In this document: in pieces, positions 16,686 to 21,021 of the stretch
Position numbering within the stretch: the stretch's first letter is position 1
How the letters are laid out: every line of letters begins with the position of its first letter
DNA from: Candidatus Electrothrix sp. GW3-4
GTDB lineage: Bacteria > Desulfobacterota > Desulfobulbia > Desulfobulbales > Desulfobulbaceae
DNA: 32,000 nt
Assembly (NCBI RefSeq): GCF_037902255.1
Contig: NZ_CP147990.1
Coordinates: 4,560,001 to 4,592,000, forward strand
Reading direction: 5' to 3'
Made by a program: the position numbers and the translations under genes
Notes under the pieces: model-generated
Told to the model about the DNA's origin: nothing
The model's input: the letters and a program-made list of their open reading frames with translations, nothing else
Database searches by the model: none

Positions 16686-16710
16686 TCGAAAAAGTGTACT
16701 TTTTCTTTTG

Positions 16711-16739
16711 GGGGCGTCGTTAATGGACGCCCCTTTTTT
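16711..16739 (+). terminator. Rho-independent terminator downstream of the porin gene
   Basis: GGGGCGTC (16711-16718) pairs with GACGCCCC (16726-16733) around a 7-nt loop, followed by TTTTTT (16734-16739). Confidence 0.7.
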
Positions 16740-16772: not shown

Positions 16773-19559
16773 TCAGATCTTTTCAATCCGAGTTTTGATA
16801 TACTTCAGCGGCGGGGTCCCAGACCAGGTACAGGCAAGGTTGGGTGGCAGCAGGACATTGGTGTTGAAGCCTCCACATTCTGGATATTTTGGATCTCCTT
16901 CCAGACCGTATTTTCCGCCAAACCCACCTCCAGCAGCCAGGACCCCCTGACGAATCCCCCAAGTCACCTTGGCTGTCGCTGTGGCCTCCCCCCAGGGTGA
17001 GGAAATCAGCACTTCATCACCATCAGAAATATCGAGCTGCTTGGCATCCTGGTAATTCATCCAGACCGGATTTGAGCCGCATTTTTTGACCAATGCGGGA
17101 TTCCAGAAGGTTGAGCAATGCTCATGCTCAGCGATTCTGAAATAACCGATGATCATAGGATATTTATGGTCTGGTTGCAGTTCCGGCCAATCAGCATAAG
17201 GTGCAATATAATCTGGCAGGGCATTGCCTCCGATCTTTTTTGCGGCCGGGTTGATAAAATTATACTTACCGGTGAGCGTGGTACCAGAGGAACCGTAGCC
17301 AGCTGGCGGGTTAAAGGAACCCCATTCCCGGTGCTTATAAAATTTTTGTGCGTCCGTCACAAAATAGCCGGTCTCGTAGAGTATATTCAGACTGACCCCC
17401 TGTCCGTGGAGCTGATTCGTCATGTATTCTTCTTCACTCTTCCAGGGAAAATATTCCCCATACCCGAGGCGCTCTGCCAGTCCTGTAAAGATGGCCACCA
17501 CAGAACGAGAGTCATACAACGGTGCAATGGCCTTTCGGCCCAACGAGATAAAGGATTCATACATCCAGTCCGATATCACCCGGCTCTGCTCAAGATAGGT
17601 ACAGTCGGGCAGGATCACATCACAGAGTTCTGTGGTATTGCTCATAAAGCAGTCGATGGCGCAGGTGAATTCCAACTGACGCATAGCACGCTGAGTTGAG
17701 GGCTCAGAACCATCCGACATGACCGGATTACCAAAATAGCAGAGCATGGCCTTGAGGCGTCCTGCCTGGACATCCTCTTCTAAATAGGCAGGAATCCATC
17801 CCTTCCAGAGTTTACTCCTGTTCAACTTGAACTTCTCCGCATTATTGGGAGGCTTGGGCTGACCGTCTCCCCAGGGAGAGGCGAGCTTGCGTTTGCCAAT
17901 CAGACTGGGGCCACCAGGCGCATCAAAACTCCCGACAAGGGCGTTCAAGGCTTGAATGGCCTGGGTGGCATGAACAGCATTGGGTACCTGGGCCACACCA
18001 GTCCAGGACAGGGCCGCTGCTGCAGGGGCGGCAGCGGCAAACTCCCGGGCCAGGCGTTCAATGGTCGCCGCAGGCACCCCACTGATACCCTCTGCCCAAA
18101 AGGGGGTGCGGAGAATACCGTCTTCCTCGCCCTGCAGCCGTCGCTTGAAGGCCGCAAAACCGTAACACCATTCCTTGACAAAGGCCTGATCGTACAGGTT
18201 CTCCGTCACCAGGACATAGGCCATTGCCAGGGCCAGGGCCCCGTCTGTCCCAGGGAGAATGGAGATCCATTCTGTCGAGACCTCAGCGGTTTCGCTTCGC
18301 CGCGGGTCTACGGTTACTAACTTTGTGCCTCGCTTTATAGCCTGCTTGAGCAGATTGAGTTTACGTTGCCCTACAGAAGTTACCAACTCATTAATACCAA
18401 AGAGGAGAATGAATTCCGAATGGGCATAGTCAATCCAGGGACGCTTATCATTGCCGCAATGCTCGTTGGCCATCCGGTTGGGATTGTCGCACATTTGACG
18501 ATGGGTGGTCTTATTCGGCGTTCCATAGGCAGCCATCACGGCATCATGGCACCAGCTATTGAAATCATTGCCTTGGTGGAATCCCACCGTCTTGGGATCA
18601 AGGCTCTTCAGGCGGGAGGCTGTCAGGTCCAGGGCCTCGTCCCAGGAGGCCTTTCTCAAGCGGCCATTTTCCCGGATCAGGGGGGTCTTCAGGCGATAGG
18701 CCGAATAGGTATTTTTATGGGCATTGGCCCCTTTGATGCAGAGTCGGCCGCCTCCCTTGGGGTCACCTGCCAGACCACTGAGACCGGTGATCACCTGATC
18801 CCTGAGTTTGACCTCCTGACCGCAGAGCCCGGCACAGATATAGCAATGGGTCTTGATTGTGTTGTCTGCTTGCTGAGGGATTGCCCCTGGGGATAAGGTT
18901 TGTGGCTGGGTATCAAGTATCAGCAGGGAAAGGGGCTGAGAAAACTGCTCCAGATCTGTTTTCTCCAATGCTGATTGTACCGCCGCTTCAAGCACCGTCT
19001 GGGTGAGATCGGCCAAGCCCTGGTACCATTCGGTCTGCGCAGCAGAGCGAAGCATTTCACAGAAGGCATCAGCCCAACCCAGATGTTGGCTGAGAAAAGC
19101 CCGTTGCTTCTCTTCCGTTCCTTGTTGTTCAGCCAGATAGGCCATAAATTCCAACTCAACCGCGATATGGTCGTCCAGGTCCGGGTAGGCAGGATTTTTA
19201 TGTACTCCGTTATTGGAATACGCCTGGCGGACCGCAAAGACCGGTTCCTGCATAAGCAGGGGCTCTTCGCTGAGGTGGCAGGAGGCATAGGGGAAGACAG
19301 GGTTTTTTCCTGCATTGAGAAAAAGTCCTGCATATTCATAACGCAGCTCGTTATAGATGTCCTGGGCTGAGCCCCCCTGCAAGGTTGCTGTTATCTTGGC
19401 CAGGCCAGAGCGGAGACCAGGAGATGCGCAGTTGGCTGCTGCTTTATTCAGCTGGTCAAAGAACGGGTTTGCCTGCATCTCTTCAAGAAAGGCGAGCGGG
19501 ATTTCGTCCTGATAGAGGAAGGAAAGAAAACGGTATACAGTTGCTGTTGCGTTGTGCAT
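16773..19559 (-). CDS. Molybdopterin (Mo/W-bisPGD) oxidoreductase catalytic subunit with N-terminal TorD/DmsD-like chaperone domain fused; no Tat signal
   Basis: Residues ~1-200 (YRFLSFLYQDEIP...YEYAGLFLN...PDLDDHIAVELEFMAYL...FLSQHLGWADAFCEML) follow the TorD-family pattern. They are followed by an FeS motif C-x2-C-x3-C-x27-C (HCYICAGLCG...RLCIKG), molybdopterin-binding regions (DPRRSETA, ILPGTDGALALAM), and a C-terminal MGD-binding beta-barrel (VWMNYQDAKQLDISDGDEVLISSPWG). Confidence 0.8.
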   Translation of the reverse strand: MHNATATVYRFLSFLYQDEIPLAFLEEMQANPFFDQLNKAAANCASPGLRSGLAKITATLQGGSAQDIYNELRYEYAGLFLNAGKNPVFPYASCHLSEEPLLMQEPVFAVRQAYSNNGVHKNPAYPDLDDHIAVELEFMAYLAEQQGTEEKQRAFLSQHLGWADAFCEMLRSAAQTEWYQGLADLTQTVLEAAVQSALEKTDLEQFSQPLSLLILDTQPQTLSPGAIPQQADNTIKTHCYICAGLCGQEVKLRDQVITGLSGLAGDPKGGGRLCIKGANAHKNTYSAYRLKTPLIRENGRLRKASWDEALDLTASRLKSLDPKTVGFHQGNDFNSWCHDAVMAAYGTPNKTTHRQMCDNPNRMANEHCGNDKRPWIDYAHSEFILLFGINELVTSVGQRKLNLLKQAIKRGTKLVTVDPRRSETAEVSTEWISILPGTDGALALAMAYVLVTENLYDQAFVKEWCYGFAAFKRRLQGEEDGILRTPFWAEGISGVPAATIERLAREFAAAAPAAAALSWTGVAQVPNAVHATQAIQALNALVGSFDAPGGPSLIGKRKLASPWGDGQPKPPNNAEKFKLNRSKLWKGWIPAYLEEDVQAGRLKAMLCYFGNPVMSDGSEPSTQRAMRQLEFTCAIDCFMSNTTELCDVILPDCTYLEQSRVISDWMYESFISLGRKAIAPLYDSRSVVAIFTGLAERLGYGEYFPWKSEEEYMTNQLHGQGVSLNILYETGYFVTDAQKFYKHREWGSFNPPAGYGSSGTTLTGKYNFINPAAKKIGGNALPDYIAPYADWPELQPDHKYPMIIGYFRIAEHEHCSTFWNPALVKKCGSNPVWMNYQDAKQLDISDGDEVLISSPWGEATATAKVTWGIRQGVLAAGGGFGGKYGLEGDPKYPECGGFNTNVLLPPNLACTWSGTPPLKYIKTRIEKI

Positions 19560-19833
19560 TGTCCAGTCCTTAAGGTTGTCCGATGTTCTATATGGTTCGC
19601 AGGAACGGCTCTTTGTAAAGAACTTCGTCTAGTTGATTTTGGATATTTGTTCTATTAATAAGTTAAAAATCAATACTATATGTGGGAGAGATGTGGTATA
19701 TCATGCTCTGTTATTCTTTGTCAACCGGATTTTCCGGTGGAGAGATATCAGAAGATGAACCCAAAAAACAGGAAGACTGACTTGGTCGTTGCTACGATAC
19801 CCTGAGCAACCGGTACAATCGACGGAGGAGAAA

Positions 19834-21021
19834 ATGCTAAAGAGGAGATGGAATCGATGGTGGTTTATGTTGCTGGCAGCGGTCTTGCTGCTGAGCTGGC
19901 CACCGTTACTTTTGGGACAGGAGATGGCGTCCTCAACCACCCAGATTGAGCTGCCCGCCAAATTGGCAGCAGTGGTGGCCAATACCCCCACCGGTACTGA
20001 TGCGGGCCAGATTGACCTTCAGGCGGAAAAAGGTTTTGCTGGTATACCAGGGGCACCGCAGATTAACTATCTTGTCGCCTTTCTCTGGGCGATCTGGGTT
20101 GGCTGGATCTTTACCACCGTGGGGGCCTTTGGCGGTATCATGGCTGGAGTGGGACATCTGACCATCTTTGGGCTCGGGCTGTATGCAACAGGCTTTAAAA
20201 CAACCAACCCTGAGTTGAACGCCATGTTGACCGATATGATCAGGGCCTCTAATCAATATCTTGTTGGCTTGGCCGCCCTGATCTCAACCTATAGTTTCTA
20301 CAGGATGAAGCGATTGGTGGTCCCCCTGGGCCTGGCGCTCGGCCTGGGGAGTGTTAGCGGTGGCCTGCTGATTCCCTGGCTGACAGCGGGCAAGATCCAG
20401 CTCAGTCAGTATATTGGCTGGTTCGGTATTGCTGTCCTGGTTATCGGGGGATTTATCTTTTACAGCACTACAGAGCGCAGCCATTCCAAGAAGAGCAAGG
20501 CCGATGAGGCGGCCAAGGCCTTTCAGCAGGCCATGAAGGAGCAAGGGGGGAATGATGGGCAAGGAGTGCTCTTTCAGTCCTTCAGCCCGAGCAAAATAAC
20601 CTTCTCCTTTTACGGAACAGAGTTTCGCTTTAACCCGATCCTGGCCCTGATTGGTGGCATGATCATTGCCTCTATTTCTTCTTTCCTGGGGATCGGAGGC
20701 GGCTTTCTCTATGTTCCTTTTTTGACCAGCGTTATCGGTCTGCCCATGTACATCGTGGCAGGGACTTCGGCCTTGGCTGTGCTGCTGAGTATGGTGACCA
20801 GTGTCTTCTCGTATGTGGTTTTGAAGGGCACCTTTATCAGTTGGAGCCTGGTCGGCATCGAAATGGTCGGGGTGGCTGTGGGGGCCTTTATTGGTCCCAA
20901 GACCCAAAAATATATCCCGGAAAAGATTCTAAAATGGCTCTTTGTGGTTCTGGCCGCTTATGTCGGTATCCGCTATTTCAGCAAGGGCTTCTTTAATCAG
21001 AGCTGGTTACCCCCGTTTTAA
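19834..21021 (+). CDS. TauE/SafE (TSUP) family anion exporter-like membrane protein
   Basis: Polytopic hydrophobic protein with two halves, each carrying the family G-G-G motif (GAFGGIMAGVG; FLGIGGGFLYVPFL). I preferred the ATG at 19834, preceded by GGAGGAG, over the TTG at 19789. Confidence 0.7.
   Translation: MLKRRWNRWWFMLLAAVLLLSWPPLLLGQEMASSTTQIELPAKLAAVVANTPTGTDAGQIDLQAEKGFAGIPGAPQINYLVAFLWAIWVGWIFTTVGAFGGIMAGVGHLTIFGLGLYATGFKTTNPELNAMLTDMIRASNQYLVGLAALISTYSFYRMKRLVVPLGLALGLGSVSGGLLIPWLTAGKIQLSQYIGWFGIAVLVIGGFIFYSTTERSHSKKSKADEAAKAFQQAMKEQGGNDGQGVLFQSFSPSKITFSFYGTEFRFNPILALIGGMIIASISSFLGIGGGFLYVPFLTSVIGLPMYIVAGTSALAVLLSMVTSVFSYVVLKGTFISWSLVGIEMVGVAVGAFIGPKTQKYIPEKILKWLFVVLAAYVGIRYFSKGFFNQSWLPPF

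Follow-up and report, generated by a model that had tools for sequence, protein, structure and literature searches.

A TorD-type chaperone domain fused to a Psr/Phs-like molybdopterin oxidoreductase without Tat leader in Candidatus Electrothrix and related Desulfobacterota

Here we show that a single gene of the cable bacterium Candidatus Electrothrix sp. GW3-4 encodes a chaperone domain of the TorD/NarJ/DmsD family joined to the N-terminus of a molybdopterin oxidoreductase, and that this fusion is real, conserved, and under selection. The gene is one open reading frame (ORF) of 928 codons with an ATG start, located at 16773..19559 on the minus strand of a 32,000-nucleotide stretch of the chromosome (NZ_CP147990.1, positions 4,560,001 to 4,592,000; hereafter the window, numbered from its first base). 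The explanation that we favour, with somewhat better than even confidence, is that its product is a cytoplasmic, one-chain protein in which a TorD chaperone acts in cis on a Psr/Phs-like catalytic subunit of the molybdenum (or tungsten) bis(pyranopterin guanine dinucleotide) type (Mo(W)-bisPGD), with a small anion, most likely one of sulfur, as substrate. No paper describing the fusion was found in full-text literature searches, and the only fusions mentioned in a review of molybdoenzyme maturation from 2023 are engineered ones. Homologues are labelled in databases as "molybdopterin-dependent oxidoreductase", as "thiosulfate reductase", or with a joint dehydrogenase/TorD label.

TorD, DmsD, NarJ and their known relatives are separate proteins of about 200 residues that bind the twin-arginine translocation (Tat) leader or N-terminal tail of a client enzyme and then leave it. 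A first-pass annotation of the window had proposed that some 200 residues with the TorD pattern stand here in the place of a Tat leader, and two profile models agree on such a domain: Pfam Nitrate_red_del (PF02613) matches residues 47-168 (E 1.7e-27; 96.6 bits against a cut-off of 22.2), and the NCBIfam TorD model aligns to residues 3-195, covering model positions 10-206 of 211. The domains Molybdop_Fe4S4 (234-286), Molybdopterin (289-697), and Molydop_binding (807-920) follow in the expected order, all above their cut-offs. Both the linker text quoted in that annotation and its C-x2-C-x3-C-x27-C motif were recovered from the translation, the latter as the FS0 motif C239-x2-C242-x3-C246-x27-C274. 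No twin-arginine motif was found in the translation, either at the N-terminus or in the linker, nor in the linkers of aligned homologues. Profiles, predicted structure, and conservation all back the proposal of a cytoplasmic Mo-bisPGD enzyme with a built-in chaperone and no Tat leader.

More than 115 full-length homologues (918-973 residues, 50-84% identical) were retrieved from 5.8 billion protein clusters; nearly all have the four Pfam domains, and they belong to Candidatus Electrothrix, Electronema, Desulfobulbus, Desulfofustis, Desulfocapsaceae, and Desulfobacteraceae. When a library clustered at 50% identity was searched, a single full-length sequence represented the family, and its nearest further relatives, at most 35% identical, are unfused. 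Among 185,579 species (one genome each), 167 related stretches were identified, and the carriers include two cultured strains, Desulfofustis glycolicus DSM 9705 and Desulforhopalus vacuolatus DSM 9700. Even sampling showed orthologues in 6 of 401 genomes at the level of the phylum and in 20 of 201 at that of the order; within the order sample they occurred in all four genomes of the window's genus, in none of the 29 from the family's other sampled genera, and in 13 of 32 from another family. An assembly or sequencing artefact, in which a frameshift or a missing stop codon makes one ORF of a torD gene and a Tat-leader enzyme gene, could be considered since split forms exist in other lineages and some short TorD-only matches come from fragmented Electrothrix assemblies. 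However, complete chromosomes also carry the ORF without interruption, as do the more than 115 protein clusters, which derive from independent assemblies, and no homologue carries a Tat motif in its linker. The chance of an artefact is therefore practically nil, and the splitting of the ORF by a frameshift correction, for which the annotation had allowed, finds no counterpart in the homologues or in the 167 related stretches, where the single ORF is kept.

Both its PF02613 profile and its all-alpha fold place the N-terminal domain among the redox enzyme maturation proteins (REMPs). Shewanella TorD (1n1c) matches it with E 1.9e-13. Like TorD, DmsD, NarJ, and YcdY, it is a full-length domain with the same all-helical fold and the motifs LF..G...P.Y.S and D-H, and it stands directly before its presumed client; unlike them, it is covalently joined to that client, the client has no twin-arginine motif, and the cut-off of the NCBIfam TorD equivalog (NF003442) is missed (83 against 132 bits). 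Residues F80, L81, P87, P90, Y91, H131, and W162 are invariant in alignments of 17 and of 71 homologues. The leader-binding pocket of DmsD, which we take to consist of L75, F76, P86, W87, D126, and H127, aligns with L79, F80, P90, Y91, D130, and H131 of the fused protein. Pairwise ratios of nonsynonymous to synonymous substitution rates (dN/dS) were 0.12-0.21 for the TorD part, 0.17-0.74 for the linker, and 0.05-0.09 for the catalytic part, with dS saturated for most pairs; the least saturated pair gave 0.20, 0.31, and 0.09, respectively. On these values the chaperone domain is kept by purifying selection, although less tightly than the catalytic core. The linker differs among homologues in both length and sequence.

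AlphaFold2, run on the 71-sequence alignment, gave a full-length model with a mean predicted local distance difference test score (pLDDT) of 90.7 and a predicted template modelling score (pTM) of 0.90. Because the pTM is this high despite a separate N-terminal fifth, the TorD domain is confidently placed and predicted to sit fixed on the catalytic core, a docking that the first-pass annotation had raised as a question. The linker is structured in this model (helix from about residue 198/200 to 210, pLDDT about 88). When the TorD domain and linker were modelled alone (pLDDT 87.9), helix 198-210 was retained at a pLDDT of about 92, which leads to the prediction that the linker packs on the TorD domain in the absence of the core as well. 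Foldseek searches with this fragment returned YcdY, DmsD, NarJ, TorD, and TtrD, the first four at target-normalised template modelling (TM) scores of 0.64-0.72, while the whole model matched PsrA best (2vpw; TM 0.82, E 7e-45), followed by ArrA.

In the mechanism that we propose, the TorD-type chaperone would be tethered by about 40 residues to the catalytic N-terminus, where relatives carry a Tat leader; acting in cis, it would hold the apo-enzyme competent for cofactor insertion and would then stay docked. The mature protein would work as a stand-alone catalytic subunit, exchanging electrons through FS0 with a soluble partner. A partial parallel is NarJ with cytoplasmic NarG (8jzd), where the enzyme is likewise a cytoplasmic Mo-bisPGD protein and the REMP recognises a leader-derived N-terminal peptide. 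By analogy, the tether in the fused protein may play the part of the vestigial Tat-like N-tail of NarG; NarJ is, however, a separate protein, and NarG falls in another clade, uses Asp as its ligand, and depends on NarH and NarI.

The predicted rigid placement of the domain on the core would also suit a TorD-like domain that has become a permanent structural or regulatory subunit, for example covering the FS0 face that in PsrABC is taken up by PsrB or docking a redox or signalling partner. Such a role would be in keeping with the loss from fused loci of a Fer4_11 gene that the nearest unfused relatives keep, with the position of the gene between histidine-kinase and receiver genes in relatives other than cable bacteria, and with the existence of a related enzyme that bears a fused receiver domain instead. 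Invariance of the DmsD/TorD leader-pocket signature, as expected if peptide binding is still needed, argues the other way, and we consider this alternative unlikely, although a structural role and a chaperone role are not exclusive and can coexist.

A PF02613 search of the whole genome (97% complete) returned the fused domain (18975-19559 of the window) as its sole match, and the same genome holds a PsrA with Tat leader at G000:C1:2141181-2143400, together with PsrB. As the only REMP of the genome, the fused TorD might also, or mainly, serve this enzyme in trans, and a member of that PsrA clade from another genome does have its own adjacent TorD gene. Many Psr systems, however, have no dedicated REMP. 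Moreover, separate TorD genes are present in four of five other carriers tested (zero to three extra per carrier), which nonetheless keep the fusion, and a tether to a docked client of 700 residues disfavours free action. Taken together, action in trans, be it additional or the main function, is very unlikely, and the cis-acting chaperone remains our preferred reading.

The catalytic part is a Mo/W-bisPGD subunit of the DMSO reductase superfamily with a predicted Cys metal ligand. Its four FS0 cysteines and Lys276 are invariant in the alignments of 17 and 71 homologues, and Cys357, the motif around which is invariant in the family, aligns with the Mo ligand Cys173 of Thermus PsrA. The closest solved relative by sequence is PsrA (2vpw; E 1.6e-62, 27-28% identity), with acetylene hydratase third best, and the best NCBIfam model is PhsA, with a score of 284 bits where the cut-off is 694; the protein stays below the cut-off of every equivalog. 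The protein thus shares with PsrA/PhsA (Thermus thermophilus PsrABC, Salmonella PhsA) the FS0 motif, the Cys ligand, and the best sequence and fold match, but it differs from them in having a TorD domain rather than a Tat leader at its N-terminus, in forming a separate clade on a long stem, and in lacking PsrB and PsrC. Genes for PsrB (four-cluster FeS protein) or PsrC (NrfD-type) were found neither in the window nor consistently in the 71 related loci; the observation in the annotation that no PsrB-like or membrane-anchor gene is adjacent holds for the window at large, which contains no Fer4_11 gene. Judged from its sequence, the catalytic part is closest to PsrA and yet outside PsrA/PhsA, because it combines the missing Tat leader, the missing PsrB/PsrC genes, and a score below cut-off with two changes in the active site (see below). 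A Psr/Phs-related molybdoenzyme and a TorD-family chaperone also occur together in Desulfobacterota in the MOLY cluster of sulfur disproportionators, for which a sulfur role has been proposed (PMC12998232). That cluster, however, encodes separate proteins, MolyA, MolyB, and the TorD/DmsD-type MolyC, which are predicted to be extracellular, whereas the fused protein is a single, predicted cytoplasmic chain without a MolyB-type subunit.

Trees of the catalytic part were computed with FastTree and IQ-TREE. The fused proteins are monophyletic (support 100) on a long stem (about 0.78), and their sister is a Tat-bearing enzyme (support 99). While the annotation had left the catalytic domain unassigned among the Mo-bisPGD clades, the trees place it in a clade of its own among Psr-like groups, several of them Tat-bearing, and not within PsrA/PhsA. 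Leaderless proteins of about 700 residues, among them paralogue E of the same genome, form another large clade, from which the fused one is distinct. The split version that the annotation had envisaged, with torD preceding the gene for a Tat-leader enzyme, occurs elsewhere in the phylum: at L081:2069-4855 (minus strand; G335:C57), a TorD-like ORF of 166 codons ends in a TAA stop and is followed by a 760-residue Psr-like enzyme in the same frame, with a Tat leader that starts MKRRDFLKF. The TorD protein of this locus is 35% identical to the fused domain. Gene order and reading frame match those of the fused gene, with a single TAA in between, but the products are two proteins, the twin-arginine leader is intact, and the enzyme belongs to the canonical Tat-PsrA clade rather than to the fused clade. 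Between the last TorD helix and the first FS0 cysteine, the tether spans 44 residues, a length similar to that of the leader plus mature N-terminus of the split form (52 residues). Directly downstream of the nearest unfused relatives lies a PsrB-like Fer4_11 gene, which is not consistently present in the 71 fused loci.

From these data, the family probably arose from a torD gene and a directly following gene for a Tat-leader enzyme. The stop codon would have been lost and the leader would have decayed into the tether, by which the enzyme would have been kept in the cytoplasm; we regard this route as plausible.

Other N-terminal extensions among the near relatives were considered as further TorD fusions and rejected: those of P0147 and P0254 are fusions with ferredoxin domains, and that of P0189 has no recognisable domain. 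A related Psr-like enzyme at L089:2300-4915 (minus strand; G195:C66) carries a response-regulator receiver domain at its N-terminus and is followed by a Fer4_11 gene, with a PPDK_N/phosphoenolpyruvate (PEP)-utilising protein and a double GCV_H protein in the vicinity. In the tree this receiver-fused enzyme groups with an unfused paralogue that lies near the fused gene in locus L058.

With respect to substrate, we infer that the enzyme would act on a small anion transported by the linked TauE-type permease, with inorganic sulfur species such as thiosulfate or polysulfide as the most likely candidates. The divergent neighbour of the fused gene had been annotated as a TauE/SafE-type exporter, a family assignment borne out by PF01925, and the hint taken from it gains support from synteny. 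Of 36 well-flanked loci (those with at least 5 kb on both sides of the gene), 18 have a TauE orthologue no more than 8 kb from the fused gene; these cases span at least six lineages and varied gene orders and orientations. The genome under study has only three TauE genes in 4.64 Mb. The recurrence of TauE speaks for an association with a small anion that probably contains sulfur.

Several observations weigh against the reading set out above, in part or as a whole. As to the origin, the branch of the Tat-bearing sister of the fused clade is long, and other near neighbours are leaderless, so that a Tat-exported ancestor can be called only likely. A hidden Markov model (HMM) of the linker, compared with the Tat leaders of relatives, extends into the leader for few sequences and with low scores; given this weak similarity, and the placement of the split-form enzyme in another clade, the route by stop loss and leader decay is graded as plausible and not higher. 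As to the chemistry, His145 and Arg332 of Thermus PsrA, presumably active-site residues, align with Gly330 and Thr520, both of which are conserved in the fused family, and the reaction may for this reason differ from polysulfide reduction. Finally, TauE is missing from half of the well-flanked loci, including six of nine cable-bacterium loci (window counted), and no electron-transfer partner is conserved near the fused gene in the 71 loci.

The two changed PsrA residues, the long stem branch, the want of a conserved electron partner, and the scores below every NCBIfam equivalog cut-off would also be compatible with a substrate other than an inorganic sulfur anion. The enzyme could be non-redox and hydratase- or hydrolase-like, as the rank of acetylene hydratase among the solved relatives might suggest, or could act on an organosulfur, selenium, arsenic, or N-/S-oxide compound; permeases of the TSUP/TauE family also carry organosulfonates. 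We think this rather unlikely. The catalytic Asp of acetylene hydratase, which we take to be Asp13, next to the second FS0 cysteine, is absent from the fused protein, where Ala243 follows Cys242, and the column holds A, L, or G across the family. In addition, the family invariably has the Lys that lies between FS0 and the pterin, as redox-active members do, and the carriers are sulfur-cycling Desulfobacterota.

A more speculative form of the cis-acting model, which we would not expect to hold as a whole, treats the tether as a fossil Tat leader held permanently in the chaperone groove, that is, as a covalently trapped chaperone-client complex, and the enzyme, together with TauE, as a missing cytoplasmic thiosulfate- or polysulfide-like step in cable bacteria and sulfur-disproportionating Desulfobulbales. 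If true, an exported enzyme would have turned cytoplasmic. For structural work on how TorD grips its client during cofactor insertion, a naturally occurring single chain of chaperone and client, whose fixed arrangement is predicted with confidence, would be convenient, and the cultured Desulfofustis and Desulforhopalus strains named above would permit genetics and biochemistry. More broadly, a conserved Psr/Phs-like enzyme of predicted cytoplasmic location bears on the processing of sulfur intermediates in cable bacteria and sulfur-disproportionating Desulfobulbales (PMC12998232, PMC6976610).

Within the window, the fused gene stands alone, convergent with a porin gene and divergent from the TauE gene, which is about 230 nucleotides away. 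The features of the gene and its surroundings are summarized in Table 1. Because the hairpin between the porin and the fused gene is likely a two-way terminator, the fused gene is taken to be monocistronic. Upstream of the fused gene, pattern matches identified the palindrome ACCGGAAAATCCGGT (19738..19724, minus strand), which overlaps by one base a TTGACA (19724..19719) that is followed after 18 nucleotides by TATACC, and an AAGGA located 7 nucleotides before the ATG. The palindrome, lying in the spacer shared with the TauE gene, is a plausible candidate operator. A consensus scan of the spacer gave another weak sigma-70 candidate and no sigma-54 consensus, though relatives have a sigma-54 activator nearby. 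The downstream Pst, ArsC, and porin genes of the window were considered as parts of the system and rejected, since they are not conserved beside the fused gene in relatives, with the exception of the porin in some cable bacteria.

Table 1. Features of the fused gene and its surroundings in the window (strand as given; a dot marks features without strand; aa, amino acids)
Feature	Positions	Strand	Basis
Whole gene, fusion of TorD domain and Mo(W)-bisPGD oxidoreductase (P0001)	16773..19559	-	ORF and Pfam domains
TorD/NarJ/DmsD-family (REMP) chaperone domain, aa 1-195	18975..19559	-	PF02613, TorD NCBIfam model, fold
Linker, aa 196-233 (38 aa), at Tat-leader position	18861..18974	-	Translation, alignments
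FS0 [4Fe-4S] domain, aa 234-286 (Cys239, 242, 246, 274; Lys276)	18702..18860	-	PF04879
Molybdopterin oxidoreductase domain, aa 289-697	17469..18695	-	PF00384, E 7.9e-36
Cys357 codon, predicted Mo/W ligand, motif H-R-x-M-C-D	18489..18491	-	Alignment with Thermus PsrA Cys173
Molybdopterin dinucleotide-binding domain, aa 807-920	16800..17141	-	PF01568, E 1.6e-15
TauE/SafE-family (TSUP) permease with signal peptide; likely true start ATG 19834	19789..21021	+	PF01925, E 2.9e-23
GC-rich hairpin between porin and fused gene, likely two-way terminator	16710..16734	.	Pattern match only
Divergent control region	19560..19788	.	Pattern matches only

In Desulfocapsaceae and related lineages, the fused gene lies within a conserved row of genes, exemplified by L026:91-14940 (Desulforhopalus vacuolatus DSM 9700) and about 17 similar loci. 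The row comprises a PPDK_N/PEP-utilising protein, a DSP-type phosphatase, a sigma-54 response regulator, a small membrane protein, a PAS histidine kinase, a receiver protein, the fused enzyme, a GAF-PAS-HisKA protein in which no ATPase domain is recognisable, the TauE permease, and a membrane protein of about 200 residues. Cable bacteria have lost the regulators of the row, and only some of them have kept TauE.

Multi-pass membrane proteins of about 200 residues without Pfam match adjoin TauE in several lineages; they fall into three BLAST clusters of similar topology and follow TauE in L026:14335-14940 and L065:996-1613, or lie between TauE and the fused gene in L044:4734-5396. These proteins may be partners of the permease. 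A PhnD-like periplasmic binding protein (PF12974), which may be the ligand-binding partner of the sensor, is encoded at L065:6692-7651, at L005:7055-7948, and in six other loci, either beside kinase and regulator genes or directly upstream of the fused gene. In L058:7956-17983 and in L046, the fused gene is three genes away from an unfused leaderless paralogue of 703 residues. A GltD-like FeS flavoprotein was rejected as a general partner: it occurs in four loci only, and in L058 and L046 it stands beside this unfused paralogue.

Six genes of the Electrothrix genome match PF00384, namely the fused gene, the Tat-PsrA gene beside PsrB (C1:2140745-2143400 for the pair), a NapA-like gene, two long formate-dehydrogenase-like genes, and a leaderless paralogue. 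The strongest Fer4_11 match of the genome (E 3.2e-26) adjoins the Tat-PsrA gene, about 2.4 Mb from the window, and the other two are likewise far from it. One of the long formate-dehydrogenase-like ORFs (G000:C1:2063246-2067391, minus strand) contains a single in-frame TGA, which probably encodes selenocysteine.

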